Shown piece after piece: positions 370 through 64,000 of a stretch of DNA of 64,000 bases (position 1 is the stretch's first letter; each line of letters begins with the position of its first letter). Position numbers and translations under genes: made by a program. A model generated the notes under the pieces. The model had not been told where the DNA came from, did no database searches, and saw only the letters and a program-made list of their open reading frames with translations. Source of the stretch: Heptranchias perlo (taxonomy: Eukaryota); assembly GCF_035084215.1 (NCBI RefSeq), contig NC_090340.1, forward strand, positions 5,580,001-5,644,000, given 5' to 3'.

Positions 370-2748
370 CTGCAAAACCTTCCCTGGTCACGCCCGCTCG
401 ACTTTCGTAATCTCCTCCATCCATACATCCCACAAGCAACCGCGGCTTCTCTGACATCACGTTGCACCTTATTACCTCCTCCTCTGATCCACCATGGGGC
501 GTAGCAGTTTTCGCCATTGTGTGAGTTGACTTCTCTGAATCTACCTGGCTTACTTATTCCTTCTTAAGACTTAAAGTATACCCTAAAACCGTTTCATTCG
601 CCTGTACCTTTGCCCATCCTCAAACTTGTGTTATTTTTTTCATTCCACTAAATCACCATTTCTTTACTCCCATTCAATAAGACGTTCTTAGCGTCCTGCA
701 TAAAGGCAAGTTTTTGTTTATACAATGTTCGCTGCCATTATACTTGAGTAATGTTCCTGCATGATTTAGTTTTGGACTTTTGATGAATTACACTTTCAAA
801 TATCGCAATTTCTAACGTTTCGCAGCATGAACAACGCTTTATCTTCTGTCACCTATTTGGTCGGTGAGCACCAAGCCACAAAAATATAGAAATGTGAAAT
901 TTATGCATAACGAAAATGGAAAGTTATTCTTGAGAGAAGTGGAAACGAAATTTAGGGACCTGAAATAATTTGGTTGACATTTGGAGTAAACATGCTAAAA
1001 TATGTTCAAGCAATTTCTTATGTGGAAAGAACTGGTCTCTGAATAATACGGGTTTCAATTTAAATGTGATTTAAATGACGAAATCACGAGTATTGTTGAG
1101 TGAAACGCATTTTATTTGGTGTGCACACAAATGTTCAGAAAAACACACCAATCCGATCGACGAACGTTCTCTAATGTTATACTTGAAACTTATTTGAAGA
1201 TATGGTTGGACATTCGTGGCAGTAGCACAAAAGCAATCAATTGAGATAAATACCTTCTTAATGCAAGTTAATTTTTAACATTCAGAATGAACAAAATACG
1301 GATATGGATGTTCACTTAGGACGAAACCATTCTACTGTCTCCATCTTACTCCGGCCTACGTTGATCCACGTTGTGGCTTGAATTTCCACTGCTCCATTTC
1401 ATGAAGGGAAGTGAAGCGAACTTGCCCGCCGCCCTTCCGCTGAGCGCTGACAGCTAAGCTCTATAAAATTTGGCGGTCTTCCTTACTAAAACAACCACTG
1501 TATGGGCGAAAAGGGTTGGGCCAGATAATTGGGGGTTAATACAGGAGTTAAAGAACCGCTGCAGCTTAAAAGGGAATTTTTAGCATTTGTTGCATTGGCC
1601 AGGAGCTGAGAGTTCTGGCAAATGAACGTGATAGTCAAATTTCGGTGAACCAAAATGGGTATACTACTGGAAGCCATGACAGCAAGAATGGCAATGCTGT
1701 TTTCATATAAGAAAATTGACCGATGTAGTCACAGTGTGGGTATAGTGGAGGAAGTTGGCTAAAATTGTTAGTGCATCCCTTCATGATCAGCAGGGAACAA
1801 GTGATTGTGTCCAGAATGAGGAAAGCAAATGCCGCAAAATCCGAGTGAATTCATATATATAAATCAAAGATATATCTACATTGATCTTCTCTATCACTCT
1901 CTTTCAAATATAAGTTAACAATTCGCTAAACGCCGGGATATACCACTTCTAGCACTTTTGCATTCTGATCAAGAAAGGGCCAGAAATCGCTCCCGAAATT
2001 AGAGCTCAAAAGTGCTCTAAATTTTCAGTGGCAAATTTTAGGATCAATTCCCACGTTTGCACATGCGCAGTGAAACGCGGAACTCTGGAGCTTGCCCCAC
2101 GTGTTTCCACGGCGAAATGAGAGCTTCGAATTAAACAACCATGGCACGCTGCAATCAGAGAAATCATTGAAAAAGCGCAACAATGCTTATCTTCTCAACT
2201 AGAAAATAACTAATTACGCCACCAAATAGGTACACGTAAAATTACCAGGTCTAAACTACGTGTTAACTGCGCGGTTAGTCTAACTGACTGTTAAACAATT
2301 ACAAATTAACTTTTAAAAATGTGGGGTCTAATATTACTCCCTATTTTAATAGTGTTTGGCTGTTAAAAAAACAAAAAATAAAAAAAAATGTTTTTTTTAC
2401 TTTTCCGTTCTGTCTTTTTAATTTAATTCAATTATTTATTTGCCTTTTTATTAAAACAATATATTTTTTTATTTACAATGACATATATAGTATTACCTTT
2501 AAATGAATGAAGATTGTTTGCCTGCTTGAGCAATGGAGACTGAATCATTGGGCATGACTTCTCTTCCTGACAGATTTTGGGCGTGTCCTCTCCTCATACA
2601 CTTTTCCAGCCGTGCAGCAATTCTGGCCGCTTACAGGCTGAGTTGATAGCGCAGCATTGTGTTTAAAGTCCAATTTCAAACAATTCGACGCCACAGAGCC
2701 CGCAGTAAGTAGTTTCATTAATTTAATTCAGAGCAGCTGCGGTGATCA

Positions 2749-3910
2749 TTGTCTTTATACAAGATAAGAGCTCATGCTGTTGGGGGTAACAAACTGGCAC
2801 GGATAGAGGATTGGCTAACTAAAATAAAACAAAGAATTGGGATAAAAGTATCGTTTTCAAAATGGCAATCTGTAACTAGTGGGGTGCTGCAGAGATCAGT
2901 GCTGGGGCCTTCACCTATTTACAACATATATCAATGACTTGGATGAAGGAACAGAGTGTATTGTGGCCAGATTTGCTGATGATGCAAAGCTAGATGGAAA
3001 ATCAAGTTGCGAGGAGGACACAAAGTGTCTGCAAAGGGATATTGACATGTTAAGCGAATGGGCAAAACATTGTCAGATGGAAGATAATGTGAGAAAATCT
3101 GAACTCATCCACTTTGGGAGGAACAATAACAATGCAGAATATTATTTGAATGGAGAAATACTACAAAATGCTGTGATACACAGGGATCTGGGTGTCCTCG
3201 TACGTGAAACACTAAAAGTCAACAGACAGGTGCAGCAGGTAATCTGGAAGGCAAATCGAATATTGGTCTTTATTTCTCGAGGGACGGAAGAGAAAAGCAG
3301 GGAAGTCATGCTACAACTGTACAGGGTGCTGGCGAGACCACACTTGGAGTACTGCGTACAGTTCTGGTGCCGTTATTATGGAATCATGTACTTGCATTGG
3401 AGTTAGTTCAGAGAAGGTTCACTCGGTTGATTCCGGGTATGGAAGGGTTGACTTAGGAGGAATGATTGAAAGGTTGGGTCCATATTCTGTGGAGTTTAGA
3501 AGAATGAGAGGAGATCTTATTGAAACATATCAGATTCTGAAGGGAGCCGATTGGTAGATGCTGAGAGGATGTTACCCCTCATGGGGGAATCTAAAACTAG
3601 GGGGCATAGTCTTAGAATAAGGGGTCGCCCGTTTAAGACGGAAATGAGGAGGAATTTCTTCTACCAGAGGCTCGTGAATCTTTGGAATTCTATACACCAA
3701 AAAGCTGTGGAGGCTGACTCATTGAACATATTCAAGGATGAGTTAGACATTTTTTTTATTAGCAGGGGAGTCAAAGCATATGGGGAAAAGGCGGGAAAGT
3801 GGAGTTGAGTTATAACATCAGATCAGCCATGATCTCTTTAAATAGCGGAGCAGGCTCGAAGGGCCAAATGTTATACTCCTTATCCTATCTCTGATGGTCT
3901 TATGGACTTA
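2749..3910 (+). mobile_element. 5'-truncated CR1
   Basis: GVLQRSVLGP, FADD, RPHLEYCVQFW, NLWNS and CR1 3' UTR. Confidence 0.92.
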
Positions 3911-4559
3911 TACATTTTTCCTCCAGTGCAGATTCATATGATATCAAAGGATTAATTCAGCCCATTTTTCCCTTAATAAATTTCAGTTTTAACCAGAAGG
4001 TCTCCAATACAATTTGTCAACGATTTATCTTGACTGAGTTGTCAATGAAATCATTCAACTGGATAAGTTATCACTTGTGTTGTATCGATGTGTCTTTCGA
4101 GGAGTTAAACCCTCGGAGGACAGCTACAAGAACAAAGAAAGCGTGTAGTTGAATGCTTGTCAGCTAAAGTCTCTCTCTGGTAAACGAATCTGACTTTCCA
4201 AGCCTTCTCGCAGGAGCTCATAGTTAAGAATTAATCTTTTCCTTACAGCCGCCACAACCACCCCCCACCATTGACAGTCTGATTATATATAAGGCCTTTA
4301 CTAACAAAATCTTCAGTGTCATGTATCTATCGGAATATACTTTGTCACGCAAATGTCCACCCATTTGTATTACCTAACATATCATCAAAAATATTACTAA
4401 TATCAGAATATATTGAATGAAAGCGAATCCTTGAAATCTATTTCTACCGAAATATTCACATATATGTAAAAGTCATCACCTGCATTAAAGTTTCTTCCAA
4501 TCTTCTTTTATTGTTATCCAAATTGTGGGTACTTTAAATTGCAATTTTGGGGTTCATCC

Positions 4560-5050
4560 TGAATTGGAATTTCTAATGCTACATCCGTCTCTACTTGATT
4601 TTCCATCCCACACGACGTACTGATGTTTTTATCTCTTTCCTGATTGTAGCATTAAAAGGTTGGTTTTTCTATGGAACATGTGTCAGTGCCTTGATTAATA
4701 AGTTTCTCAATCTCCTGTGCTACATTAACCATTTCATGTAATGGTGTGGTCAGCGTGACTGAGCATGTCTGATACCAGTTCTTCAGGGCATCTTCATCAT
4801 GCATTCCACATAATAGTTGCCTCACGCTCAACGTATCACATTTGCACACACATTTGCATCCCAAGGTCTTGCCACATGTGACATCAGATACAAGACATTC
4901 CTGCGCTTTCAGGCCATCCTGTCAAAAGATCGGATGGTGTCTGGAGGTCCTTGATTATCTCCCTCTGCATGATCCTGATGTCTGGCCAGCTGATCAAATG
5001 CACTTTTAAATTTTCGCTATGAGCAAGGACACAAACATCTCCAAGATAAA
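4560..5050 (-). mobile_element. Possible highly degraded gag-like relic
   Basis: Minus-strand fragments QGPPDTIRSF, QLLCGMHDE...LHEMVNVAQEIEK and a decayed CYN/SCG knuckle-like stretch; weak resemblance only. Confidence 0.3.
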
Positions 5051-7079
5051 ACTATCAATTAACTATTCTTAACTATATTTTCCTGACTTTCACTAGCTTG
5101 TGCATTGATTCCAGATTGATATTTTATAGTGAATCATGCCCACGTGACATTAGATACTCGTGGGTGCACTCGCACATCTTTTCTTAACTTGCAATTCACG
5201 CATAATCACCTAGGGCGATGAACTTAGACCCCATGTGAAGGTGTAATTTTCCTGTTTCTATCTAATATCCTCAATCACATCCTTTCATTATATTTTACAC
5301 CACCTGTTATGATACCAATTCATCTTATTCGGAAGCCCTGGAGGATCTTCACTGTCCAATACAATATAATCATTACTCCATAAAACATCGATCGAAAGTT
5401 CCCAACTTAGTCTAAGTTGTCAACACATGAATGTTTATTTTACTTGAACTCTTCTTGGACCTCTTCGTTTTCAAAATATTCTGCTATATTAAGCTTGAGT
5501 ACATTTTATCTTTTCGAAATTATCCCAAATCCAGAGAGTAGTCTAGATGAGAGATGTTCGTTACTTTTATCGCAACAGCTCCCCATCCCACACCAGGAAT
5601 AGGTTAAAATTGAACTGGTATTGTTGGATTGACAGGACTTGTCAATGTTTAATTTTATTTCCAAAGAAAACATTCTTCTTTGATACACAGCACTGGACAG
5701 GAACCACCGCGACAAGACTCTTTATTAAAATAACAATTTGGTTAAATCCTTCAGGTCAATGTTCCCTTCTCGAGTGCTTGAACAGAAGCTCATTTATCAA
5801 TATATCTTATCAATTTTAATTTCAGAATCAAATGATGCCCATGCTTTGTGGTTTTACTGAAGAGACAGAAATGCTTGCAATTACTTTTGGAATTAACTCC
5901 CATATCCCCACACCCATCACACTTGAGCACTTTGTCCGAGAAGAAAACAAACGACCCGGAATGGGTTAAGGCTGAGCCTTTGTAAGAAAATGTCTTAGCA
6001 CAATTTGTCAACAGACTGCGACTTTTCACGATTCTTAACACTACTGGATATCCTTCTTAGAACAATACCTTTCCAGCAGAGGCTGCTCCGTAACTCTGTG
6101 GAATCATTTTCGTGTCGAAGAACAACTCTCGGTAATACTGCGCCATCATCACTGACGCGGTCCCGAAAAGCATGGTCACCTGCTGCAAAATAAGAGAAAA
6201 TCGATTGTGGCTCTTCTTGAGAGCCCAGTGGATTAATGGAATAACGTGCATTTGCCAATTCCTGATGTCTTTCTGTCATCGTGGGGAAAATCCCATTCAA
6301 ATTAAGAAATCCACGACTTAACAATGGCCGATATATATTTACATTGAACAATGCAAAGTTATTGTTTGGTGAATATTTACTATAACGATTGAAATCAGAT
6401 GCATTTGGAAGAGTTTAACTTCTTTCCTGTCGGAAAGAAGGGGAAGCCAAATTCATCGTCATTATGCGTCAAGAAACTTTCAAATAAATTGAAAGAAATT
6501 TTGCCCAATGAAACGGAACCAAACTTCATTTTTTCCGAAGTCTTTGTTTCCTTAACAGTGATCCTGTGGATTTATTAAACTTGGAGTCCCCAATCTTACA
6601 TAAGATTAAACTAGCACAAAGATCCTAATACAGTTAAATTGCTGCAAATACATTTTAGCTCCTATTTGACTTCCAAGGATCGAAAGATAAACCGTGAAAG
6701 CAAAAATGTTATCATTTTTTTGCATCATGCAGAATGGAAAATTTGTTAAAACAAGCAGAAATCATAAGTAACATGCTTATTAATTGTAATTACATTCCTG
6801 TCAGGCAAGATAGCATTTTAGTTTCTTAATCACATTTTTTTTTAAAGTAGGAATTTCCTCGCTTTTTACCGATAATTCAGATTCACCAACATTTTTGTTA
6901 AATCATTCATCAACTAGACAAAAGGTTTCCAAAAGCACACGTCTTATTAAATCTTAGCTAATTAGTACAGTCCAAACACAAACTGTTTTCAGATTGTTGC
7001 CATAGAGATGGTGGGAGATGCTTGGATCCCCCTTTTCTAATCAGGTCACTTTTTTGATCACAGTCAATCACAAGATCAA

Positions 7080-7525
7080 GATATATATTAATGACCTGGG
7101 CTTGGTTATACACGGCACAATTTCAAAGTTAGCAAAAATACGAAACTCGGAAACAGTGAGGAGGACAGTAATAAACTTCAGAAGGACATCGTCGGACTGG
7201 TGAAATGGGCCGATACATGACAATGCAATTTAATGCAGATAAATATAAAGTGATTATTTTTGGTAGGAAAGTTGAGGAGGGACAATATAAACTAAAAGGT
7301 TCTAATTTAAATGGGGTGCAGGAACAGCGAGACCTGGAGATGAACGTACACAAAGTTTTGATGGTGGCAGGACAAGAGGAGAAACCGTTAAAAAGGGATA
7401 ACGGATACTTGCCTTTATAAATAAAGGTCCAGAGTATAAAAACAAGGAAGTTATGCTAAACCTTTATAAAACACTGATTAGGCTTCAGCTGGAGTATTGT
7501 GTCCAATTCTCGGCCGCGCACTTCG
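7080..7525 (+). mobile_element. CR1 RT fragment
   Basis: MQFNADKYKVIIFGRK...QRDL. Confidence 0.8.
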
Positions 7526-8615
7526 AATCATAGAAAGGTTACAGAACGGAAGGAGGCCATTCGGCCCATTGAGTCCATGCCGGCTCTTTGCAAGAGCAAT
7601 CTAGCAAGTCCCACTCCCCCGCTCTTTCCCCGTAGCCCCGCATTATTTTTTCCTTTCAAGTATTTATCCAATTCTCTTTTGAAGACCACGATGTCAGCTC
7701 CATTGCCCTCATCTACCCTCCCTGTTACCTCATCGATAAACTCTATCAGATTATTTAAACACGATTTGCCTTTAACAAATTCGTGCTGGCTTTCCCTAAT
7801 CAATCCATCCTCGTCCAAGTGACAGTTAATTCTGTCCCGGATTATCATTTCTAAAAGTTTCCACACCACTGAGGTTAAACTGACTTGCCTATAGTTGCTG
7901 AGTTTCTCCTTACACCATTTTTTGAACAAGGGTGAAACATTAGCAATTCTTCAGTCCTCTGGAACCACCCCTGTATCTGCGGTTGTTTGGAAGATTATGG
8001 CCAGTACCTCTGCGATTTCCAACCTTACTTCCATCAACAATCTAGAATGCACCCCATCTAGAACGAGTGACTTATCTACTTTAAGTACAGCAAGTCTTTC
8101 AAGTACCTTTTCTTTACCAATTTTAGCCCATCCGGTATCTCAACTATATCTTCCTTTAGTGAGACTTTGGCAGCATCTTCTTCCTTTTAAAGACAGATGC
8201 AAAGTACTCATTTAGTACCTCGGCCATTCCTTCTGCCTCCATGAGCAGATCTCCTTTATTGTTCCGAATCAGCCTCACCCCTCCTTTTACTACCCTCTTA
8301 CTGTTTACATACCCGTAGAATACTTTTAGATTCCCCTTTATTTTGGCCGCCAGTCAATTCTTATATTCTATCTTTGCCCCTCGTATTTCCTTTTAAATTC
8401 GCCTCTGAACTTTCTATAATCTGCCTGCTCCTCACGTGTGTTCTCAACCTGACATCTGCCATATGCCCATTTTTCCGTTTCATCTTACTCACGATCTCTT
8501 TTGTCACCCAGGGAGCTCCGACTTTAGTTGTCCTACCTTTCTGCCTCGTGGGAATATGTCTAGACTCTACCCGAACCATCTCCTCTTTAAAGGTCGCCCA
8601 CTGTTCAATTACATG
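7526..8615 (-). mobile_element. Internally deleted CR1
   Basis: NYRQVSLTSVVWKLLE, QHEFVKGKSCL fused to the 3' end; PWVTKEI upstream. Confidence 0.85.
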
Positions 8616-9307
8616 CAATTCCATGTAATGGAGATTAGATTTGAATTTTCACGCGAGGTTCCCATTCCCCTCCCGTAACTTGTGTGGAGGTGCCACGGAA
8701 ACCTAAAAAAAACAGCACTGGCATTCATTTATAATTCTAGAATCAGCCGTGAGTTATTAAATTAATGAATTGTACTCATTCCGTTAAAATTAAATGCCGT
8801 GTTTTAGCTTTTTTGGGCGTTTACATGAATTTCCTTTGTTGGTTCATTGACCAAGTGCAATGAGATTGTGTTCATATTGTTCTGCCAGAAGATGGTAGTG
8901 CTGCACTGTGTAAGCTGTGGCAAATAGAACACAATCGCAGCACTATGATTGAGAGTAAAGTGCAGGCAAAATAATTTCCGTGCTGTGCTCCCAGTCTCCC
9001 ACCAACCTCGAATGTAATCCTTCAGAAGTGACGAAACGGCCTGCTTTCCCGTAATCTTCACTGACTTTAAGATGGGATATTTGGAGAACCGCCGCGGAAA
9101 TTGCAGGCATGCGGTTGATAGCCTATTACATCGTTCAAACTTAAGTTCGGCCTCAATAACCTAGAGATAGCCTTGTACTGTTATGGAACAGGCTTATTTC
9201 AAGTTACCTCGGGTTATTTTCGACCTCGTGGAAGATCCAGGCTTAATTTTTCGGATGCATTATGGCAAACATTGCAGCGTCCTGCAAGAGCGGAAGGCTC
9301 GTGACAC

Positions 9308-10937
9308 AAATCGTTGAAAGTGGCGGCACAAGTTGAGAAGGCAGTTGAAGAAAGCATATGGGATCTTGGGCTTCATTAATAGAGGCATAGTGTACAAAAG
9401 CAATGAAGTTAAGCTAAACATTTATAATACACTAGTTGGGCCTCAGCGATAGTATTGTGTTCAATTCTAGGCACCATATTTTCGGAAAGATGACAAAACC
9501 TTAGAGAAGGTGTAGAAGAGATTTACTGGAATGGTAACAGGGATGTGGGACTCAGTTATGGGGAAGATTGGATAGACTGGAGAAGCTGGGGTTGTTCTCC
9601 TTGGAGCAGAAAATGCTAAGAGAAGATTTGATGGATCTGTTCAAAATCGTGAACAGTAGTTTATTTATTCATTCAGGTATGTGGAAGTCGCTGGGAAGGC
9701 CAGCTTTTATTGATCTCCCCTAATTGCCCTTGAGAAGGTGGAGGTGAGCCGCCTTCTTGAACAGCTGCACTCTGTTTTGAAGGTGCTGTTCGATTGGGAG
9801 TTCCATGATTTTGACCCAGCGACGATGAAGGAACGGTGATTCATTTCCAAGTCAGAATGGTGTGTGAATTGGAAGGGATTTTGCAGCTGGTGGTGCTCTC
9901 ATGCGCCTGCTGCCCTTGACCTTCTAGATGGTCGAGGTCACGAGTTTGGGAGATGCTGTGGAAGAAACCTTGGCGTGTTGCTGCAGTGCATTTTGTAGAT
10001 GGTACACACTGCAGCCACAGTGCCCTGGTGTTGGAGAGATTGAACGTTTAAGATGGTGGATGGGGTGCCAATCATTCCGGCTGCTTTGTCCTGGATGGTG
10101 TCGAGCTTTTTGTGTGTTATTGGAGCTGCACTCAACCAGGCAAGTGGAGAGTATCATATAACACTGCTGACTTGTGCCTTGTAGATGGTGGAAAGGCTTT
10201 TGGGCGTCAGGAGTTGAGTCACTCGCCGCAGAATACCTAGTCTCTTACCTGCTCTTGCAGCCACAGTATTTAGTGGGTGATTTCGTCGATGCAAATGCCA
10301 TTGAATTTCAATGGGAGGTGGTTAGATTATCTCTTGTCGCAAATGTTCATTGCCTGGCACTTGTGTGGCACGAATGTTACTTGCTACTTATCCGCCCAAG
10401 TCTGGATGTTGTCCAGGTCTTGCTGCCTGCGGGCACGGGCTGCTTCATTATCTGAAGAATTGCGAATGAAGCTGAACACTGTGGAATCATCAGCAAACAT
10501 ATCCACTTCTGACATTATGATGGGGGTGGAGAAAGGTCATTGAATAAGTTAAGAAGTAATGAAGAAGTAATAAAGAAGTAATGAAATAATGAAGCAAAGT
10601 TCTTTGATTCAGTAAATAATGAGAAACTGCTTCCAGTAACAGAATGGCTGGTAACAAAAGGATACATATTTAAGGTGACTGGCAAAAGAACCAGAGCAGA
10701 TACGAGGAAACATTTGTTACGCAGAGTGATATTATGCTCTGGAATGTGCTGCTTGAAAGGGTGGTGGAAGCAAATTCGTAAATACTTCCCAAAGGGAATT
10801 GGATAAATACTTGAAGGGAAAAAGTACAAGGCTATGAGGAAAAAGAAGGGTAGTAGGACTTTCAAAGAGCCGGCACAGGCACGATGGGACGAAAGGCCTC
10901 CTTCTTTGCTGTAATATAACATGATACTATGATACTA
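9308..10937 (+). mobile_element. CR1 3' fragment interrupted by an antisense LINE/SINE-tail element (~9660-10540)
   Basis: CR1 halves at 9308-9655 and ~10600-10937, (ATGATACT)n tail, possible TSD TGACAC (9302-07/10938-43); absent from copy B. Confidence 0.8.
9660..10540 (-). mobile_element. LINE 3' end (L2/CR1 group) sharing its tail with the SINE-like repeat at ~28480
   Basis: LDTIQDKAAGMIG...SLQH..TVAAVCTIYKMH on the minus strand. Confidence 0.75.
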
Positions 10938-11049
10938 TGACACTGGCCGATGCAGACTACTCCCGTATAAACTGAACAGGGAGTCAGTGTCATGACAGGC
11001 ATGCCGGTTTTCCAAAGTGCTTTACAAGTGAACGTGGATAACGTAGTTG

Positions 11050-11600
11050 ATTATGAATAACGCAGCTATGTGCAATTGTTTTATAACCTCGACAATATTC
11101 GTACTCTTTGCATGATGCGAGCTGCCCTGCATAAATTCTTCCACCACATGGAAAGGAGATTATTATTTTGCGAATGAAGAAATTCAATAAATTTCAATGA
11201 GAGCTTTTGGAAGGTACTGACGAAAGGATGGTGTGAGAATACCAACTCCTATATCCTACTTTTCTTGTTACGCTGCTACTGGACACTGCTTTGGTGTATT
11301 CCGTTATTTCTGTCGAAGCAATGCAAAGAATGAAAGTAACATTGTTGCAAGGTTCACTCCAGCAAGATGAACCAGACAAGGTGCAGTCCATTAATTTGCA
11401 GCTCATGAAGTCTACTGCCTTAGTCAAAACATTTCAAGGAGAATGCACACTTGTGCTTATTGCATCCGCCAAGCGATCGTTGGTCTACGGCAGAAGCCAC
11501 TGGAAACGCTTTATGCTTCATGGTGGAATGCAGATCTTCCAACTGGCCAAAGCCCACCGCACAGATGATGCTTGTTCAGTCTGCGGTTTCCTGGTCCTTT
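11050..11600 (+). mobile_element. Possible degraded gag knuckle/aspartic protease relic (duplicated at ~50800-51300)
   Basis: HDASCPA, then LLLDTALVYSVIS (LDTGA-like) and LVYGRSHW (ILGRDW-like). Confidence 0.3.
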
Positions 11601-11996
11601 GTTGCTAACTTCACTCGAAGCAGATAGGCTGCTTTCTGAATAATCTCAACGTCTAACTCCAACCAGACTGGTATCGTTTTGCTGGGTTCGCGATTGGTAG
11701 AGTGCTTGATTATGTGGTCATGAAATTTTGGGCTGCTCACCACATTTGGCTTTGATTCTTGACTATTAATGGAAATCGTTGGAAACACCAAGATAAGCAT
11801 CTGTTACAATACGGGTTGCACGGAATTCCTCATGTCCCATGACAAAATTCTTCTGTGTTTTAGAATGAAGACGTGAATGTTTCAGTGTGCCAGGAAAGGA
11901 AACGAATCAGCATTGATTCGTGCTGGTCTGTAACATGTCAAGTCCCTTCTGAAATACCCAGCATAATTTCGTCTATAGCATCACGAATTCTAAGAG

Positions 11997-12414
11997 AAGA
12001 CTGCGGCTCTTTTCCATAGAAAAGAGAAGTCTGAAGGATGACCTGATAGACGTCTTCAAGATTATGAAAGGGTATTGTAGGGTAGACGTAGAGAAGATGC
12101 CCCCACTTGTCTGGGAGACCAGAACTACTGGCCATAAATATATTCTAGCCACTAATAAATCCAATAGGGAATTCAGGAGTAACTTATTTTCCCAGAGAGT
12201 GGTTAGAATGTGGAGCTCGCTACCTTAAGGAGTAGTTGAGGCGACTAGCATAGATGCATTTAAGGGGCAGCTAGATAAACACGTGAGGGAGAAAGGAATA
12301 GAAGAACATGCTGATATGGTTAGATGAAGTAAGGAGGAAGGAGGCTCGTGTGGAGCATAAATCTGTTTGGCCGAATGGCATGTTACTGTGCTGTACGGTC
12401 TATGTCATTCTATG
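11997..12414 (+). mobile_element. Short CR1 3' end
   Basis: RT C-terminus plus 3' UTR, possible TSD TAAGAG; absent from copy B at ~51790. Confidence 0.75.
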
Positions 12415-17380: not shown

Positions 17381-17459
17381 AACTTGCTGTCTGTAAAATA
17401 AAGCACAGTGTCAGATTATCGTAGTTTTATCTACTGCTTGCTATCGATTTGAGCTCGTT

Positions 17460-52194: not shown

Positions 52195-52233
52195 TTTGCC
52201 TGAGGAAGGAGAAAATCTCCGAAAGCTTGTGAA
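52195..52233 (+). ncRNA. Minimal type I hammerhead ribozyme in 5' pseudo-LTR
   Basis: TTTGC-CTGAGGA-A-GGAG(AAAAT)CTCC-GAAA-GC-TT-GTGAA: CUGANGA and GAAA cores, 4-bp stem II, palindromic AGCT stem III, stem I with G-U pairs. Confidence 0.75.
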
Positions 52234-52320
52234 TTTAAAATAAAATTGCTGGACTATAACTTGGTGTTGTAAAATTGTTTACAATTGTCAACCCCAGTCC
52301 ATCACCGGCATCTCCACATC

Positions 52321-55028
52321 ATGACTACCATCGACACCACAAACTGCCGGCTCACAGTGGAAAGGATATCCAAGAAGATCGCGCATTTAGACACAGACAT
52401 CAAGTTTTTACAGAGCTGCAAGAAAGCAGACAAGATCCCGAAAGGACTCCAGATCACGAACCCACTCAAGTCCACATACAACTCGGATTACGCTGAGAGA
52501 CTCTGCCGCCGTACCTCTCGCACACTCCGCAACCATCTCATACACCAACTCTACAGCAGACGCCACAACCTCGAAACCAAGATAGAGTCCATACTCTCAA
52601 CCTGTACTCAGGACACAGCAGACCAGCTACGTTATACCGCCAAACAGACGAGGCAACGGAACTACGCTGCCTACATGAAAACCAAGAGCAGGAAGCTTGA
52701 GAAACTCGGCATCACCACCAGCAACGACCAAGCTTCCCCTGGTACCACGGTTGCAACCACAGGGAAGTCTATTGTCAATTTATCCGACCACACCCTTCAA
52801 CCAGACAAAATCAAAGTTCTCAGCCGAGGGCTCAATTTCTGCCCCACTACCAAAATGGACCCCACTAGTCTCGCGGCGGACACAGAGGAATTCATCAGGA
52901 GAATGAGGCTCCGGGAATTCTACCACAAACCCCAAGATTTCAGCAGCGAACCCAATGAGACAATCGACGATCCGGAACAGCAGACAGAGGGATCCGCGGT
53001 ACAGCAACCGAAGAGGAAAGAGTCAAACTGGACTCCTCCGGAGGGTCGCTGCCCTCAGCTGGACATGTATGCTCAAGCTGTCAGGAAATGCGTCAATGCC
53101 AGATTCATCAGCCGCACTCAGAAGACAGTCCAGAATGTCACCCGAGCACAACGCAACGCCATCAACGCTCTCAAGACCAACCGCAACATCGTCATCAAAC
53201 CAGCGGACAAAGGAGGAGCCATAGTCATACAGAACAGAACAGACTATTGCAAAGAAGCATACCGACAACTGGACAACCAGGAACACTACAGACGGTTACC
53301 CGCAGATCCGAACAAAGAACACACCCACCAGCTCAACAAACTGATCAAGACCTTCGATCCAGACCTTCAAAGCATCCTACGCATTCTCATCCCACGTAAT
53401 CCCCGCGTGGGAGACTTCTACTGCCTCCCAAAGATACACAAAGCCAACACACCCGGACGTCCCATCGTATCAGGCAACGGAACCCTGTGTGAGAACCTCT
53501 CTGGATACATCGAGGGCATCCTGAAACCCATCGTACAGGGAACCCCCAGCTTCTGTCGCGACACTACAGACTTCCTACAAAAACTCAGTACCCACGGACC
53601 AGTTGAACCAGGAACACTTCTCACCACGATGGACGTCTCGGCACTATACACCAGTATCCCCCACGATGACGGTATCGCTGCGACAGCATCAATACTCAAC
53701 ACCAACAACAGCCAATCTCCGGAAGCCATCCTACAACTCATCCGCTTCATCCTGGATCACAATGTCTTCACCTTCGATAACCAGTTCTTTACCCAAACAC
53801 ACGGAACAGCCATGGGGACCAAATTCGCACCCCAATACGCCAACATTTTCATGCACAAGTTCGAGCAGGACTTCTTCACTGCACAAGACCTCCAACCAAC
53901 ACTATACACCAGATACATCGACGACATTTTCTTTCTATGGACCCACGGCAAGGAATCACTAAAGAGACTACACGATAACATCAACAAGTTCCATCCCACC
54001 ATCAAGCTCACCATGGACTACTCCTCAGAATCAGTTTCTTTCTTGGACACACGAATCTCCATCAAAGACGGGCACCTCAGCACCTCACTCTACCGCAAGC
54101 CCACGGACAACCTCACGATGCTCCACTTTTCCAGCTTCCACCCTAACCACGTCAAAGAGGCCATCCCCTATGGACTGGCCCTGCGAATACACAGGGTCTG
54201 CTCAGACAAGGAGGAACGCGATGGACACCTACAGACGCTGAAAGACGCCCTAGTAAGAACGGGATATGACGCTCGACTCATCGATCGACAGTTCCGACGG
54301 GCCACAGCAAAAAATCGCATAGACCTCCTCAGGAGACTAACACGGGACGCAACCAACAGAGTACCCTTTGTCGTCCAGTACTTCCCCGGAGCGGAGAAAC
54401 TACGCCATGTTCTCCGCAGCCTTCAACATGTCATCAATGAGGACAAACACCTCGCTATGGCCATCCCCACACCACCACTACTCGCCTTTAAACAGCCACC
54501 CAACCTCAAACAGACCATCGTTCGCAGCAAACTACCTAGCTTTCAAGAGAACAGCGTCCACGACGCCACACAACCCTGCCACGGTAACCTCTGCAAGACA
54601 TGCCAGATCATCGACACAGATACCACCATCACACGAGATGACACCACCCACCAGGTGCATGGTTCATACTCCTGTGACTCGGCCAACGTTGTCTACCTCA
54701 TACGTTGCAGGAAAGGATGCCCCAGAGCATGGTACATTGGCGAGACCATGCAGACGCTGCGACAACGGATGAACGGACACCGCGCAACAATCGCCAAACA
54801 GGAGGGTTCCCTCCCAGTCGGGGAACACTTCAGCAGTCATGGACATTCATCCACCGACCTTCGGGTAAGCGTACTCCAAGGCGGCCTTCGAGACACACGA
54901 AACGCAAAATCGTCGAGCAGAAATTGATAGCCAAGTTCCGCACCCATGAGGACGGCCTCAACCGGGATCTTGGGTTCATGTCACGCTACACGTTACCCCA
55001 CCAGCGAACAAATGTTATCTGTTTTTAA
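52321..55028 (+). CDS. Penelope RT/GIY-YIG endonuclease polyprotein with one frameshift near the C-terminus (~54901)
   Basis: KPADKG, LPKIHK, GRPIVS, GTAMG, RYIDD; Cys linker PCHGNLCKTC; VVY...WYIGET...RMNGH; HFSSHGH. The main frame stops at 54927 and the conserved tail RKIVEQKLIAKFRTHEDGLN continues in the frame ending 55028. Confidence 0.92.
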
Positions 55029-55274
55029 TATAATGGGTCATTTGCTGGCTCTCTCTGCCTTCCGGATGTTTCTGCCTCTCTCTGTGTTTTTTTTCTCTGT
55101 TTTTTTTTCCTGTTTGTTTTTTTGTTGAATGTGTATTTGGGGGTTCTGCAGATGACACCTCTCTGTCTGAACACGGTGATTGCCTTGGCAACGGGCAGTT
55201 GCAGGGGCAGTCTGTAAACACCATGTATTGTTCAATATGTATAAATGCGTAGGCTTCAAGGAGATCCTGAAACA

Positions 55275-55313
55275 TTTGCCTGAGGAAGGAGAAAATCTCC
55301 GAAAGCTTGTGAA
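55275..55313 (+). ncRNA. Minimal type I hammerhead ribozyme in 3' pseudo-LTR
   Basis: Identical to 52195-52233. Confidence 0.75.
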
Positions 55314-57204
55314 TTTAAAATAAAATTGCTGGACTATAACTTGGTGTTGTAAAATTGTTTACAATTGTCAACCCCAGTCCATCACCGGCATCTCCACATC
55401 ATGTGTATACTATCCAGCGTTGCAACCTTACAGCCTTTGAGCAGGGAACTGTCCAAGTGTCATAGTAAATAAATCTCTGAAAGTTCATGACCAGTGCCAC
55501 GTGGCTATTGTTAAAGCAAATGAAGTAGTGGGATGTTTCGCCCCAATGATTAACTACAAAACAAAATATACTACACCGTGCCTGTATAAGACCCAGGTTA
55601 GGCCTCATTTAGAATGCAGTGACGAGTTTTAATCCCGTCAAATGGTGGGTCATTGAGAGACCCAGAAAAAGGTTCAGAGCATGGGCACTCGATTTATACT
55701 AGTAGGCCCCTAATTATGTTGATATGGTTAAAGAGATAGGTCTTCTTATGCAAGAGATATGAAGATTTCATTGATTTCTTTAAATAATGAAGGCATCAGA
55801 TTTGGTCCATTTGGATAGACTATTGGAGTTAGACAGGTTTCTAACGCCCAAGGGACATGTGTGTAATTTACTTCCTCATAGAAACATGTTAGATATCCGG
55901 TGGTATTTATTTTCGCAAGAGTCGACGACCTTTGAAACAAGTTGTGGGACGGGCGATGAAAGCAGATTCATGATGTGCATATGATGCTCTACGACAGTAG
56001 GTGACTAGCTTGGGGAAACTGCTGTTCTATTTGTGTCCTTCATGTTCGTATGTTCGACTTCTAATACAGTGGTGCCCCTATAACAAAGCCTAACAATTAC
56101 TCATGAACTGATACTGAGCAATATATTCCCACAATGCTTCGGGAGTTCTGCTCAAGCACGAGGACCAGCATTGATGCAGCTACTGGGAGAACAGAGTCCT
56201 TGATAATGGACATTTTTCCATGTGGAGTTCCCAATCTCCCGCCTTAATATTGGCGGAAATCCTGGAAGAATGTCGCAAATGCTCCAGAAAACCGCCGCAG
56301 AGATCACGGGCGTTTGTAAATACATCCGGTCGGACGGCAGTGACTCATAATGGCAGTAAACTCTATCATTACTCAACCAGCGGCATTTCCTCTGGGACAC
56401 CTAATTGCCATTCTACACATACTGCAAGTCAACGTGCAGTTACCCAGAAACAAATTGAAAATCCACAGTAGAGTGATCATTTGTAACTTTCTCTCCAAAT
56501 CAAGCAATTTGAAACTAGAGATTCGGGATCAATCGAACTCTTGCTGTGCTCATAGGGACTGCAACTTAGTCTAGCGGAAGTAAAAATTTGAGTTTTCCTG
56601 ACTTCAGGGCACCCCTCGGACAGAACTTGCCTCAAGTCTCTTTTGTGATTTTTTTTTTCTGCACACTTTTCTTCAACTTAGAAATATCCAGCTCTCTTGG
56701 AAAACAAAACTAACACTCTCAATTTATTTGGCGGTCGTTAAAAATCCGTTTCTGTGGCCCAAGAACCCAACTGAATAATTGACCCTCGAAGTTAAATGAC
56801 AACTGTGACCCATCTACATTCTGTCCAATGGTGGGAATTGTGTTATTTTTGTGCTCAACAAATTCAGTGGACGATAATTCTCATAAATCACCTTCAATTC
56901 TAGTCATCTGACGTCAGCATGAGATACTCTTAGGTGAGGTATGGCACAGATAGTCTGCTCCTTGCTCTGTTGCAACTTCCAAAAATCACCGTAACTATTC
57001 CAATTTAGCATTTTTAAAATTATTGTTATTGATCAAACGAACAGATCTCAGGATAGTCGGAGTAGCTGTATCCATTCGCTTCATTCTTATTACAAAGTGC
57101 ATCACTTCATATTGTTCAAAATGAATTTCATCTGCCGTGTGCATGTAAATTTCAGCAGTCTGTCTATGCCCTTCTGACGTCTGCCACTTACCCCCGCAAT
57201 ATGT

Positions 57205-58330
57205 AAGGGTACGGTCGCATAGTGGTTATGTTACTGGACAAGTAATCCAGAGGCCTGGACTAATAATCCAGATTCATGAGTTAAAATTCCGCCACAACAG
57301 CAGGCGAATTTAAATTCAATTAACTAAATAAAACCTGGAATAAAAAAAACTGGAATCAGTAATGGTGGCCAAGAAACTACCGGACTGTCCTAAAAACCCG
57401 TCTCGTTCAGGAATGTCCTTTAGGGAAGGAAACCTGCCGTTCTTACCCGGTCTGGCCTATATTTGACTCCAGACCCACAGCAATGCGGTTGATTCTTAAT
57501 CGCCCACTGAAATGGCCTAACAAGCCACTCAGTTGTACAATCTCGCTTAAAAAAAGGCATAATAAGAATAAAATGGGACGGACCACTAGGCACCGGACAC
57601 GACAAAGACAAACCAAGCCCAGTCGACCCTGCAAAGTCCTCCTCACTAACATATGGGGATTGTGCCAAAATTGGGAGAGCTGTCCACAGATAAGTCAATC
57701 AACAGCCTGACATAGCCATACTCACAGAATCATAACTTTCAGCCAACGTCCCAGATTCTTCCATCACTATCCCTGGGTATGTCCGATCCCACCGGCAGGA
57801 CAGACCAACCAGAGGGGGTGGTACTGTGATATACAGTGAGGAAGGAGTGGACCTGAGAGTCCTCAACAATGACTCTGGACCCCTTGAAACCTCATGGTAT
57901 CAGGTCAACCATGGGCAAGGAAACCTCCTGCGGATTACCAGCTACTCTCCTCCCTCAGATGATGACTCAGTTCTCCTCCATGTTGAGCATGACTTGGAGG
58001 ATACACTGAGGGTAGCAAGGGCACAGAATGTGGGGTGGGGAACTTTAATGTCCGTCATTAAGAGTGGCTCGATAGCAACACTACTAACAGAGCTGGCCAA
58101 GTCCTGAAGGACATATCTGTCAGACTGGGACTGTGGCAGGTGGTGAGTGAACCAACACGAGGGAAAAATTTACTGGACCTCGTTCTCACCAATATACATG
58201 TCGCAGATGCATCTGTCCATGACAGTATTGGTAGGAGTGACCACCGCACAGTCCTCGTGTTGTGTGGCACGACCACCGTGCTAAATGGGATAGATTCAGA
58301 ACAGATCTAGCAGCTCAAAATTGGACATCC
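57205..58330 (+). mobile_element. tRNA-derived SINE-like head followed by a LINE APE-endonuclease fragment
   Basis: catagtggttatgttactggac...gagttaaaattccgcc head; KVLLTNIWGL, ILTES, PGY...DRPTRGGG, LDLVLT, SDH motifs. Confidence 0.75.
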
Positions 58331-58720
58331 ATTATGTGGCAGTTCATCAAACACAGTTCGAAAGTCCATATACACAATATCAACCGCAATATCTTCATGA
58401 ATTCTCTTTGTTATTTCATCGAAGAACTCAACCAAGCTTGTCAGATAAGATGTGCCTTTAACAAATGCGCGTTGGTTGCCATTTATTGTCCGTCATTATT
58501 AAGCCGTGTTTTTTCTAATTGACAATTAATTTTGTCCGGTATTATGGTCTCAAGATGTTTCCCCACCAGCGACATGAGGCGGTCTGGCCAGTCGTTACCT
58601 GGTTTATCTCGCGCCCATTTTTGAACAGGTGTGTAAAATTTGCAATCCACCAGTCCTCTGTATGCACTCCTATATCTGAGGAAGTGTTCCACTTGCCCAC
58701 TTCATTCCCTACAACTGGAT
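58330..58720 (-). mobile_element. CR1 fragment
   Basis: EDWWIANFTHLFK, DKPGN, VGKHLE. Confidence 0.7.
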
Positions 58721-60009
58721 ACAGCACTGCTTCCTTCTTCGTTCGGCGGAAATCATAATGATCAAGACCGTTCTCCTCTACACTTTTCAGGGACTCCACC
58801 CTCTCCTTGCCATTTACTTTGTTTTTCAAGTGTATTTTAGAATAATGTCAGTCCCCATTATCACTACTCCATCATTGCTACATCTTTCTGAAATATGGTG
58901 AATGATTCACACGAGTGTCAGGCAAAGTTAATTCCCTGAAAATGCCCCAATTATTAAGGTGTTGAGCCCACTGGTAACCTACTCATATGAGGAGGGAATT
59001 GCGTGATGGCGATCCAAAGAGTACTTGTGATTTTGTAACTTTGTTCCCTCCCTGGAGCAGCATCACCTCCCGCACCCCCACCCCCATTCTAGAAGATTTT
59101 GAATGTGAACAATATACATTCCTGTGCGTGACGGGAATCTCGAAAAAGAATTGAATTGTTCACGCTGTCGTGTGGCAACCTCATCATTAATAGTAGCCTT
59201 TTGGTGCAAAAATGGTCATTACCTCGCTTCCGTTCATTACTTTGCTAAGTAACTAAATGCAGTTCCATGGGCATTTGTGTCAGAACTCAGAAACCCCAAT
59301 TTTTACCAAAAAAGGCAAACTGGCGAAGCAGTAACCGTTCAGCAGCCGCATCCAGAACATCCAAGTATTCTGCATTATATGGCTTAATGCCGCACTAATC
59401 AATTGCCTTTGAGTTTTTGACACCAGTTATTGCTCCCCTTTTATAAGGCCCGTTCAGCAAGAAGTCAGGGCATTGAGTATCATTAGGAATTCCGCTGACA
59501 CAAGCAAAGGAGTAAAGAATCCGCCACCGCTCTCAGTTAATGTGTGGAGCGGAAAGGAACTTAAAGATAGCTTTCGGTAACACCAATTTACAAATTATTA
59601 TTTTATTTGTTTACGTCTTCATTTCCATATATTTATCCAATTTCTATTTACAGTGCTTTACAGTCTCCATATGAGTAATGACTCATGCTGAAGTATTCTG
59701 TATTCTGATAAACCTCCATATGGACACCCCCTCTTCGTTTCGTGATAATTCTTAGTCCATGTTCCTTGTTACCTAAGGAAGCAACGTGTCATTAGCCTCC
59801 CTAACAGAAGCTTTCATAATTTTCAACAGCTCCCTTAATTGTTTTCAATCTTTTATGTTCCACTGGAGAAAAAGCTCATCTGAATCGTTGTTCATGGGTC
59901 CAATTTCATATTCGTCAGAACACACGAATGAATCTTCACTGAACCCTTTCAATGGCATCAAAACACTTTCCAATAATGGAATACCAGAACAGCACGCAAC
60001 GCTCCGAAC

Positions 60010-61950
60010 CATAGAGTCAAGGAATGAAACAGCACAGAAGGAGGCCATTCCGTCCATCGTGTCTGAGTCGGCTCCTTGAAAAAGGTATCAAATTAGACCT
60101 ATTCCCCTGCCCTTTCCCCATAGTCCTGCAAGTTTATCCCCTTCAAGTATGTGTCCAATTCCCTTCTGAAAGTTTCTATTGAACCAGCTTCCACTACAAT
60201 TTTTGGCATTGCATTCCAGATCATAACAACTATAAAGGTTTAGCATAACTTATTTGTTTTTGTGATCTTTGCCTCTATTCGTTAAGTAGATAAATCGTCC
60301 GGCCAGATGAACTGTATCTCAGCCTGCTACGAGAACCAAGGGAGAAAATTGTGGAGGCAGTTTCCATCATTTTCCAATCCTCCCTAGCTATAGGTGTGAT
60401 GCCGGAGAATTGGAGGACTGATAACATTGTAGTGTTGCTTAAAAAGGGAGAAAGAGATAGACCGAGTAATTATAGGCCAGTCAATTTAACCTCGGGTGTG
60501 GGCAAATTATTGGAATTGAATCTGAGGGACAGTATAATTTCTCATTTCGAAGGGCACGAGTAAATCAAGGACAGTTAGCATGGATTTGTTAAGGGAAGTT
60601 CGTGTCTGACTAACTTGATTCAAATTTTTGAGCAGGGTGCAAGGACGGTCGCTGAGGGTAACGTCTTTGAAGCTGTGTACATGGATTTTAGCAAGGCTTT
60701 TGGCAAGATCCCACATGGCAGACTGGTCAAAAAAGTAAAAACCCATTAGGCTGTTTCCAGTGGGGTACTTAAAGCCTCAGTAATACGTCCCTTACTTTTT
60801 GTGGAATATATTAATTATTTGGACTTGAATGTGGGGTGGTGGTGTGGGGGGGGGGGGGGGCGTTGATCAAGAAGTTTGAAGATGATACAAAAATTGGCCG
60901 TGTGGTTGATAGTGAGGAGGGAAAATGTAGATGGCAGGAAGATATCAATGGACTTAGGTGGACAGAATAGTGGCAAATGGAATTCAATCTGGAGAAGTGC
61001 GAGGTAATGCATTTGCAGAGGGCAAACAAGGCAAGGGAGTACACAATAAACGGGAGGATACTGAGAGGTGTAGAGGAACAAAGGAACCTTGGAGTGCGTG
61101 TCCACAGATCCATGCAGGTAGCAGGTGAGGTAGATAAGGTGGTTGAAAAGGCATCCGGGATACTCTCCTTTATTAGCCGAGGCATGGAATGTAAGAGCAA
61201 CGAGGTTATGCTAGAACTGTATAAAAGATTGGTCAGGCAACAGCATCAGTAATGCACACAGTTCTGGCCACCACATTATGTGAAAGATGTGATTGCACTG
61301 GAGAGGGTACAGAGGAGATTTACGAGGATGTTGCCAGGGCTGGAGAATTTTAGCTATGAGAAAGGATTGGATAGGCTGGGGTTGTTTTCCTTGGAGCAAA
61401 GGAGGCTGAAGGGAGATTTAATTGAGGTATATAAAATTATGACGGGACTAGATAGAGTTGACATGGAGGACCTAATTCCCTTAACAGAGGGGTCAGTGAC
61501 CAGGGGACGTAGAATTAAATTACTTGGTAGAAGGATTAGGCGGGAGCTGAGGAGATTTTTTTTCACCCAGAGGGAGGTGGGGGTCTGGAAATCACTGCCT
61601 GAAAGGGTGGTAGAATTAAAATCCCTCAATTCATTTAAAAAGTACATGGATGTGCAGTTGAAGTGCCGTAACCTACAGGGCTACGGACCAAGGTCTGGAA
61701 AGTGGGATTAAGCTGGATAGATCTATTTCGGCCGGCATAGACACGATGGGCTGAATGGCCTCCTTCTGTGCCGTAACTTTCTCCTATTCCATGACTTTAT
61801 TTTTAAAGCCAATAATCCCGTATTCTTTCCGGTAGCCTTCTCAACTTGTTCTACTACTTTCAAACATTTGTATACGCACACCCCAAGGTCTTCCTGTTCG
61901 CTCACCCCTTTAAAATAGTACAATGTACTTGATGTTGCACCTCCTCATTC
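60010..61950. mobile_element. Cluster of nested CR1 fragments (minus-strand host at 60010-60280 and 61795-61950; plus-strand pieces 60290-61790)
   Basis: NYRPVNLTS, MEFNLEKCEVMH, ALERVQRRFTRMLPG in the ORF track. Confidence 0.85.
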
Positions 61951-64000
61951 TTAAAATGTGACTCGAATGAAGCCCTGTGAAAATTCAACATCGCTTCATT
62001 TTTTTTAATGTTAAATTCTCGACTGAATAACGCCTAAAATTCCATCTGCCTTTTGATAGCCTTTTCTATCTGCACTTCTAACTTGTAAGTATTATGTGTG
62101 AGCATCGAACTGGATGCTCACTCAAATTTCCGATATGTGTTCCCGCTGCATGAAACTCTACCAAGAGACCACAAAGATAATTATTTACCGCAAATTGTTT
62201 TTGAAAGATATTCTGTTAAAATCATTCCACTCAACAACCCTGACCTTGCGGTTTGGTACTTACACACAAATTGCAAGAATACACACTCAATGGTTGTGTG
62301 ACGCCACTGACCTAACGTGAACCACAGGAACCATCTGCACATCAGCTTGTTGTGCAACACTTCCTGTTCAGCCGAGCATAAAAGCAAATTCTAGAGCTGA
62401 CCTCAGGTCAACAAGTCCATCTTTTTCTATTAGGAGCTCCATACTTTTGTTAGCTGATAGATGATAGAACTTGTCAAGCCAAGCGCTGTAAATGTTCAGA
62501 TTTCCACATTTTGTAAAATGTATCGGTAAACTTCAGAATCGCTGAAGCCAATAACAAATTTAACCGCATCTTCTCTCAGATGGAGCATGTTAATTCAATA
62601 CTAATCACAGCTCAGCTATTAGTGCCTGTTCGCTGACTAATGTGCAGCAACAGAATGGAGCAATCGTCGATTCAATACTTCACATGCTTTCTGTGACCCT
62701 CATAATGTCAGGGCTGATGATGGTTTACTGACGAAAATGAAATATTCACTGTTTATTTCTTAGAGGCCCCTGGAGAAGTTTCGCCAACGTTACAGGTGAG
62801 TTGGGCAGAAATTAGAGAAAAATTAAATGAAACAAAGATCGTCTGTTCGGATACATTAATTAACCATAAGGACCATTATTTCTAACAAATAGCAATAGTG
62901 CTTTAATTTACGTCTAAGCTCATTAACCCGATGCATAAGGCAGGTATTCTTTTGATTTGAATTTGTGATTTAAGTCAGTTGTTAAATTAGCTTTTGGATC
63001 TTTCTACTTCCAGATAAATTAAGAATGTTTTCATTTTACCTTCTTGGTGATACGGCCGACGTTGGTATGCATCATTCACATGAAATTGTAAGCATGAATT
63101 TTCAATGAAATGGTGTCCAAATTTTTGTATTGACCTTGGGAACCTACTAAAATAATAAGGGATAGAATTTCCGCGTGGCTTCCGCCGATATCCCTCTGAA
63201 GTCACGGTGGGAAATGGAGGGACGGAAAATGCGCTCCCATTTTCATGTTGGGATGACGGACTACGGGAGTAATTTCAATATCTGGCAATCATGTACACTT
63301 TTCTTAAATGCGGAGCACGGAGCTTTAGACAAACGGGCAGAAGTGACTCAACTGAGAAACATCGACAACTCAATTTTACTCTAATAGTTTATTTACTGTC
63401 CAGCAGACCCTACCAACATTTTACACCCAGACTAACGTCTTAGCTGACTGACTCTCCAGGTCCACGGCATCTCACGCTGATACTGCTTGTCTTCCTTGAA
63501 CTCTCGAGTCAATTCGGAACCTGACTGACGAGTTATACTGCCACTTTATAACTGAATCTGATGTAACTATCGCCGTAGAATTCATAACAAAACAACTAAT
63601 ATCCATAGTTCATAAAATACCCTTAAAATACCCTTAAATATATAAAAATAACCCGAAGATAAATTTGAAATTCTCCACAGTTATTCCAACTGCTATCTAA
63701 TGACCTCCTCTTCAATATGGATTCCTGCTATGAAGACATGGAACGGTAGCTCTATCCCTCAACCCATGGAACGTCCTCGCCTCCAAAATGAGCTTGTTAC
63801 ACGAATCAGACGGATAGATCAGACCTTTAGTACTGAGGAGACCCTCTTCAGGTCAACAATTGACCCATTAATCAGATGCTGTCGAATAAATTAGTTCTGG
63901 ACACGCAAGATTCATTCTTCGTGGCGGGTAAAGAGGTGATGATTTATGAGCTTGTGAGCTCATGTAGAATTTTAATAAGCTCCACCTTGTTTTGTTATTA

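Follow-up and report, generated by a model that had tools for sequence, protein, structure and literature searches.

The 64,000-nucleotide stretch C18:5580001-5644000 of the 3.25-Gb Heptranchias perlo genome, referred to below as the window, carries a gene for a transmembrane (TM) receptor with one V-type and one C1-set immunoglobulin (Ig) domain that is predicted to be inhibitory. The receptor stands among about 100 paralogues, including predicted activating versions with an arginine in the TM segment, and the ectodomain tips of the two kinds were likely matched by gene conversion. The paired inhibitory/activating arrangement as such is regarded as very likely. The window gene consists of seven exons with an open 356-amino-acid frame, all its introns are GT-AG, and its tail contains four tyrosine motifs, including immunoreceptor tyrosine-based inhibitory motifs (ITIMs). 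Its exons are the following.

23745..23799, + strand: leader exon with the ATG and a phase-1 donor (aligns with the named homologues P0001-P0008)
24145..24456, + strand: compact single-exon V-type Ig domain with a J-like G strand (FGxG here), without strand C'' in the model (Pfam V-set, E 4.9e-10; model pLDDT 82)
25321..25626, + strand: C1-set Ig exon (Pfam C1-set, E 5.6e-11)
27095..27208, + strand: TM exon of the tailed (I) class, with one Glu near the outer end (TM profiles, exon modelling)
27748..27791, + strand: 44-nt juxtamembrane cytoplasmic exon, phase 1 to 0 (scored against five homologue segments; AG/GT sites)
36348..36458, + strand: tail exon 1, with an ITIM (LTYAAL) and a second Tyr motif 23 residues on (reading frame and motifs)
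36603..36731, + strand: tail exon 2, with an ITIM (LTYAAL), an ITIM-like motif (LTYAVV) and the stop codon (reading frame and motifs)

Each tail exon provides two tyrosine motifs 23 residues apart, and the 44-nt exon was found in all four I-type neighbours examined.

Searching the genome with C1 and V yielded at least 135 and at least 86 matches, respectively, mostly on C18; 150 of the 255 C1 candidates were scored, and about 10 kb was examined around each C18 match to C1. This resulted in 102 C1 loci on C18, or 101 after the removal of one duplicate fragment, with 65 at 2.7-6.0 Mb, 35 at 14.5-15.6 Mb and one at 19.0 Mb. V and C1 are both open in 67 of the 101 loci, and up to 34 are broken, partial or without V in the DNA examined. 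First-pass annotation of the window had proposed a multigene immune-receptor cluster, and with at least 101 loci on C18 the cluster is far larger than was supposed. C18 also shows higher-order repeats of about 800 kb (3.46-4.02, 4.26-4.85 and 5.08-5.97 Mb) and about 300 kb (14.68-14.75 versus 14.98-15.05 Mb) with several identical genes, which are either recent segmental duplications or false ones.

Two database proteins labelled Heptranchias perlo (P0001 and P0010) match two of the loci by eye. The other named relatives belong to sharks, rays, a skate and the chimaera Callorhinchus. In a search of representative sequences, 18 of the 20 clusters looked up are family members, all from cartilaginous fish, a result that leaves room for relatives in bony fish. 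That search was crowded by multi-domain proteins; outside the family the highest C1 score was 52 bits, and single-C1 family matches reached at least 116. Database labels of the members are scattered and automatic: SIRP-alpha-like, B7H6-like, tapasin-like, lambda-like and MHC II-like. No description of the family was found in the literature searched, which included few subscription papers; the elephant-shark genome supplement (PMC3964593) has 0 matches for SIRP, ITIM, MDIR, NKp30 and FcR.

The TM segments fall into two classes, set by TM profiles that were seeded from the family genes themselves. Class I, mostly uncharged, comprises 55 of the 101 loci, class A, short-tailed, comprises 24, and 22 were assigned to neither. 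Within the DNA examined, tyrosine-motif tail exons accompany 27 of the 55 class I genes and none of the 24 class A genes, whose reading frame runs on from the TM segment and soon reaches a stop. The pattern R-x16-[DN][HY] occurs in 20 of the 24 class A segments and in 0 of 55 in class I. Gene 2728741 was seeded as A and reassigned to I, its TM segment being I-like apart from the Arg. V and C1 are both open in 17 of the 24 A genes. It had been suggested from the window that the family might be paired and include activating members; short-tailed members with the Arg, predicted to be activating, do lie 73 and 103 kb upstream of the window and across the cluster. Both classes also occur outside this genome. 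The chimaera carries both (P0193 and P0183), the Arg motif is conserved from chimaera to sharks, and within the window gene's subfamily A-type segments were found in catshark and bamboo shark and I-type ones in zebra and horn shark. Further TM variants were observed: two ITIM-tailed genes (L043 and L059; C1 at C18:3917648 and 4754791) have Lys where the window gene has Glu and are possibly dual-signal receptors; several genes at 14.6-15.3 Mb have an I-like segment with Arg and no tail found; and ray members of the window gene's subfamily (P0005-P0007) show a third type, with Arg and without the C-terminal Asp/Asn-His.

The ectodomains do not follow these classes. On the V tree, I and A genes are interleaved: over 71 labelled rows the class switches 14 times, 12 of the switches being forced by well-supported branches, against a shuffled mean of 16.9. 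For six of the 19 A genes a separate I partner could be picked whose V is 91-99% identical (99, 99, 99, 97, 97 and 91%, compared with a family median of 38%), and the TM segments of these partners share 9-21%. One of the 99% pairs has its C1 exons at C18:5847095 and 5768531. Nine A/I pairs were hand-picked for DNA alignment; in all nine the aligned DNA (67-96% identity) takes in V and C1 and excludes the TM exons. The window gene itself aligns with the A-type gene 4648772 (4.65 Mb) at 92.5% over 2.7 kb, intron included; another of the Arg-TM members is C18:5506874. In two of the nine pairs the similarity is largely confined to exons, the introns being unalignable. In the three A-type genes closest to the window gene (L042, L057 and L058), a broken extra V fragment precedes the V exon by about 0.7 kb.

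In the cross-species tree, most members from this genome cluster together irrespective of class. The TM classes are older than the A/I ectodomain similarity, because both classes of one V subfamily occur in distant sharks. Ectodomains have thus been exchanged since the distant shark lineages split, as those sharks have both TM classes while members of this genome group regardless of class. Both gene conversion and module swapping fit such an exchange, and the exon-limited pairs favour conversion. Similar ectodomains, opposite predicted signalling modules and clustering, the features by which paired receptors are defined, are found here together.

The mechanism proposed for the family is predicted to resemble that of SIRP-alpha/beta. 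A ligand would bind the V domain, as can be supposed from SIRP, LILR/PIR, CEACAM and Xenopus XFL receptors. Phosphorylated ITIMs are established to recruit SHP-1/2 in ITIM receptors, and those of the window receptor would do the same, damping the leukocyte. In class A, the TM Arg would pair with the Asp of an FcR-gamma/zeta adaptor and so give a signal through immunoreceptor tyrosine-based activation motifs, by analogy with XFL and with receptors of the leukocyte receptor complex (LRC); in Xenopus XFL, an Arg-containing TM segment and a short tail in the same exon go with FcR-gamma dependence (PMC2413239). A candidate adaptor is present: at C11:52.32 Mb there is a TM exon of the FcR-gamma/zeta type that contains Cys and Asp. 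Complex prediction of the Arg-TM exon with two adaptor TM copies scored 0.21 (mark 0.34) and was counted neither for nor against the coupling; a search of the PDB with the Arg-TM profile gave chance matches only. CEACAM pairs suggest a decoy role by analogy: microbial proteins that target the inhibitory receptor would also be caught by the activating copies. The matched tips would be kept alike by gene conversion, which is described between members of the paired CEACAMs (PMC5112662). As regards FcR-gamma coupling, ligand and cell type, we infer by analogy; for the decoy purpose the chances look about evenly balanced.

Several observations weigh against this reading. Four of the 24 A segments lack the Arg motif, one of these four having a stop; for four A genes no I gene exceeds 57% identity in V, and one A gene groups apart from its own-genome paralogues on the cross-species tree. 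The published NxxR form is found in only four of the 20 Arg segments. Eleven class I segments have a charged residue, including the Glu of the window gene and the Lys of the two ITIM-tailed paralogues. Partners lie on opposite strands in only four of the nine pairs. The TM tree, which has one class change, is circular, because the profiles that define the classes were themselves seeded with genes of the family. Since only about 10 kb was examined for most genes, incomplete sampling accounts in part for the missing tails and for the 22 unassigned loci. First-pass annotation had proposed computing the ratio of nonsynonymous to synonymous substitution rates (dN/dS) on the V domains; computed over 23 disjoint pairs drawn from the 65 intact genes, the pairwise ratio reaches 0.65 in V and 0.52 in C1. 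Site models M1a and M2a were fitted to clades with at least three members (42 V and 47 C1 sequences), and no positive selection was detected on V (M2a versus M1a, p=0.32 per clade and 0.97 jointly), in tests that have low power and whose assumptions are violated by recombination. About two thirds of V codons are compatible with omega 1, and the C1 signal is marginal (p=0.04 per clade, 0.12 jointly). The selection tests do not speak for an arms race, from which a stronger mark might have been expected.

In the V domain, the spacing from Trp to the second Cys is 41-44 residues in 63 of the 65 intact genes, and the structure model (pLDDT 82) has no C'' strand. Pfam V-set is the best match for the V exon, although the nine-strand V-set is what would be expected of SIRP and the model lacks C''. 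Fold searches with the V model singled out no family: I-set domains, NKp44, PD-L2 and VNAR tie (Z 12-12.7, rmsd about 2, 84-92 residues aligned), and the SIRP V domain is not among the matches listed, which excludes nothing. The G strand is encoded within the V exon and has the J-like form GxG[TS]x[LIV]x[VI] in 58 of 83 V domains. 'VJ' describes the domain only in part, because the full [FW]GxG is present in 2 of 83 and no motif resembling a recombination signal sequence (RSS) was found at the 3' end of any of 90 V exons.

These features bear on the idea that the loci are germline-joined Ig light-chain or T-cell-receptor-like antigen receptor clusters. The V-C1 layout and some 'lambda light chain-like' labels suit this idea, and Foldseek with a two-domain P0001 model matches light chains, although that model is of low confidence (pLDDT 58) and carries little weight. 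TM segments and tyrosine tails, the absence of RSS-like motifs, the rarity of [FW]GxG and the short V without C'' all speak against it, and the idea is excluded because of the gene anatomy, with practically no probability left to it. A repertoire of the KIR or NITR kind, in which paired receptors on cells resembling natural killer cells monitor polymorphic ligands of the host itself (MHC class I or similar) and no decoys are involved, is a more serious alternative. It would account for the many divergent V lineages implied by the 38% median identity and for the roughly 2:1 excess of class I over class A, and the J-like G strand is as described for NITRs (bioRxiv 10.1101/2021.06.11.448072). The near-identical A/I tips suit decoy logic, no positive-selection signal was seen and the cluster sits on a GPI-bearing contig; such a repertoire is considered unlikely.

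Equally doubtful is an origin of the activating members in repeated swaps of the 3' module, where unequal crossover joins an existing leader, V and C1 to an Arg-TM exon and near-neutral birth and death follows, the tips not being kept matched by selection. Breakpoints within the intron between C1 and TM fit crossover just as well, and the V codons compatible with omega 1, the up to 34 defective loci and the broken state of both downstream neighbours of the window gene are as expected under neutrality. Exon-confined identity beside unalignable introns in two pairs points instead to conversion plus retention, and the conservation of the Arg motif from chimaera to sharks and the 17 A genes with open V and C1 oppose the swaps as well. 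It is somewhat less probable again that some of the copies are artefacts of assembly, caused by both haplotypes being placed in tandem. The block of about 800 kb present three times (from 3.46, 4.26 and 5.08 Mb), that of about 300 kb present twice and several identical V exons could be explained in this way; the units in the window are only 65-75% alike, 74 of 83 V rows are distinct and the third 800-kb copy has clearly diverged.

Among known receptors, the SIRPs appear to be the closest solved relatives. First-pass annotation had drawn an analogy with SIRP, KIR and NITR clusters, and of these SIRP appears the nearest, judging from PDB and ESM-atlas matches. For the chimaera protein P0183, SIRP-alpha (2wng) shares the top PDB score of 60.2 bits, followed by SIRP-gamma; Ig chains score only slightly lower (51 versus 60 bits), and for the skate protein P0047 UrIg2 equals the score. 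The top ESM-atlas clusters are SIRP-alpha-like (0.97), many members carry SIRP-alpha/beta-like database labels, and P0047 has a V-C1-C1 ectodomain. The SIRP-alpha tail has four tyrosines in two pairs, which the tail of the window gene resembles. SIRPs are non-rearranging receptors with a V-set and C1-set ectodomain, and their membrane-proximal domain is a true C1-set by the criteria C-x13-W, [FY][FYH]P and CxVxH (PMC2785349), present in 82, 74 and 79, respectively, of the 87 family C1 domains.

The family departs from SIRP in domain number, activating TM residue and genomic position. SIRP-beta1 has a central Lys in its TM segment and binds DAP12, whereas 20 of the 24 short-tailed segments of the family have the Arg motif, with Arg near the outer end. 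Members in this genome have only one C1 domain (all six for which each exon was modelled are V-C1), their V domain is about 10 residues shorter from Trp to Cys than canonical V domains, and there are about 100 loci. The SIRP locus adjoins NSFL1C. The cluster does not adjoin an NSFL1C-like gene, the SEP-domain genes being on C22 and C3; within 200 kb around the C22 gene, which we take to be NSFL1C, no V, C1 or tail exon of the family was found, with profiles that could miss a diverged SIRP.

The putative activating TM segment partly resembles the LRC type. In LRC-type receptors an acidic residue follows the TM Arg by about 17 positions, to which the family motif may correspond, and their ectodomains are C2-type, unlike the V-C1 ectodomain of the family; the Asn of NxxR is found here in only 4 of 20. 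LRC-type receptors (LILRA, PIR-A, NKp46, GPVI, OSCAR, Fc-alpha-R) and XFL TM1 have the Arg at the TM start, the TM segment and short tail in one exon and intermingled activating and inhibitory genes (PMC2413239), an arrangement that the family appears to resemble. NITRs of ray-finned fish likewise form a large clustered paired family with a single-exon V with a J-like end and ITIM and Arg-TM forms (bioRxiv 10.1101/2021.06.11.448072); the second domain of the present family is C1-set and not I-type. The same source cites no evidence of NITRs in cartilaginous fish. Holostean NITRs are flanked by runx1 and donson. UrIg, UrIg2 and NKp30 of sharks are also non-rearranging, with a single-exon V and C1-type domains (PMC12227049), and UrIg2 is among the best PDB matches for the family C1. 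By the same account, the secreted UrIg contains three C1 domains and UrIg2 at least nine, both are linked to the MHC or antigen-receptor complex, and neither is presented as a paired family (PMC12227049).

C18 carries GPI, and a Pfam scan of 102 open reading frames (ORFs) in the flanks returned two amino-acid-transporter exons and one weak match. The transporter exons are SLC38-like (L136:9297-9593, L138:9297-9650) and lie beside the cluster at 6.13-6.21 Mb. We take the transporter to resemble SLC38A8, and the setting with GPI and an SLC38-like gene presumably corresponds to human 16q/19q12-13 and chicken 11. A genome search for the LRC marker PRPF31 gave no match and is uninformative. Just beyond the right end of the cluster there is a degenerate 6-bp tandem repeat of at least 10 kb (the whole of L137), and L140 has, from about 4600, long open frames similar to those of L137.

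The local array was followed by scanning both window flanks with exon searches, the numbering being continued past 64000.

384..23504, + strand: first anchor copy, from sequence 3' of the upstream gene as far as the window gene's promoter region (self-BLAST)
38200..63994, + strand: second anchor copy, ending about 225 bases before the ATG of the next paralogue (self-BLAST)
Leader ATG 64220, V 64620-64931, C1 67308-67613, TM 69872-69985, + strand: next paralogue, C18:5644220-5650543 (exon searches of the flank)

Self-BLAST of the window gave 21 plus-strand matches at offsets of 37-45 kb. As a control for mobile elements, 20 of them were checked for minus-strand copies in the surrounding 264 kb: 11 are essentially without such copies, hence not mobile-like, and strictly colinear (identity 65-78%, offsets 37,816-43,476), and the remaining nine are dispersed repeats. 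The earlier annotation had counted six or more non-coding anchors at about 38-43 kb, and its two end alignments were reproduced: 384-1623 aligns with 38200-39494, which starts 1.47 kb beyond the stop codon (36731; about 1.5 kb had been given), and 63380-63994 aligns with 22900-23504 (about 23520, 225 bp upstream of the ATG, had been given). The tandem array of about 40 kb that it derived from them holds as regards the colinear anchors and does not hold as a regular period. Six consecutive ATGs, the first located to within about 25 bases, are 29.6, 60.9, 36.0, 40.5 and 40.2 kb apart (range 30-61 kb); because of this irregular spacing, 40 kb is a local period. Identity between adjacent 40-kb units is only 65-75%, and between alternate genes it is about 90%; the recent duplication unit is therefore a two-gene block of about 76-81 kb with about 90% identity.

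Paralogues flank the window gene on both sides, as had been supposed: leader, V, C1 and TM exons follow past 64000, and two tyrosine-motif tail exons of an upstream gene, whose seven-exon frame is open, lie 2357-1974 bases before position 1. The expected receptor paralogue does start just past 64000, its ATG at 64220 being a few bases from the predicted position of about 64225, but it is not an intact gene. Its C1 and TM acceptors are changed from AG to CG and its TM donor from GT to AT, both tail exons are gone through a deletion of about 2.95 kb, and it is likely a pseudogene. The gene after it (104406) has a stop codon inside C1.

Other elements were noted within the window. The introns on either side of C1 contain an internal 500-bp duplication (24660-25148 and 26260-26740, 82% identity) common to close paralogues. 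In the long intron before the tail exons, about 28470-28840 is a short high-copy repeat, very abundant in the sequence-run contigs and likely a short interspersed element (SINE), and 29893-33465 (+ strand) contains pieces of a long interspersed element (LINE) retrotransposon: a GDSL-esterase ORF1, an endonuclease and a reverse transcriptase. Two direct repeats, each 99% identical (52034-52323 / 55114-55403, 3.1 kb apart, and 48043-48235 / 49274-49466, 1.2 kb apart), are possibly the ends of young insertions. As for expression, a 476-nt contig from a run presumed to be RNA spans 25326-25624, the C1 exon nearly edge to edge, at 87% identity, a weak hint at a spliced paralogue transcript. Contigs of three sequence runs gave nothing over the leader, V, TM or 44-nt exon of the window gene and no splice joints, and the database listing has no RNA entry for it.

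At present, large paired-receptor families in cartilaginous fish are poorly charted, and the scattered automatic labels hide the unity of this one. That paired Ig receptors are homogenised by conversion is already known as a general kind, which limits the surprise. The analysis adds about 100 mapped loci, named A/I pairs with tips 97-99% identical and a candidate adaptor, and with these the ligand, the cell type and the order in which FcR-gamma and DAP12 coupling arose become directly testable. Relics of the antigen-receptor ancestor have been sought among single-exon V(J)-C1 genes (PMC12227049, PMC2785349). On the sequences compared, the family would be as old as the chimaera-shark split and would combine a SIRP-like V-C1 ectodomain with putative LRC-like Arg activating TM segments. 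A much more tentative proposal is that it may be at once the main paired innate-receptor system of cartilaginous fish, an expanded survivor among the non-rearranging V(J)-C1 relatives of antigen receptors and the deepest SIRP branch, with ITIM and FcR-gamma forms that split before the chimaera-shark parting. If this is true, Arg/FcR-gamma coupling would be older than DAP12 coupling in SIRPs.

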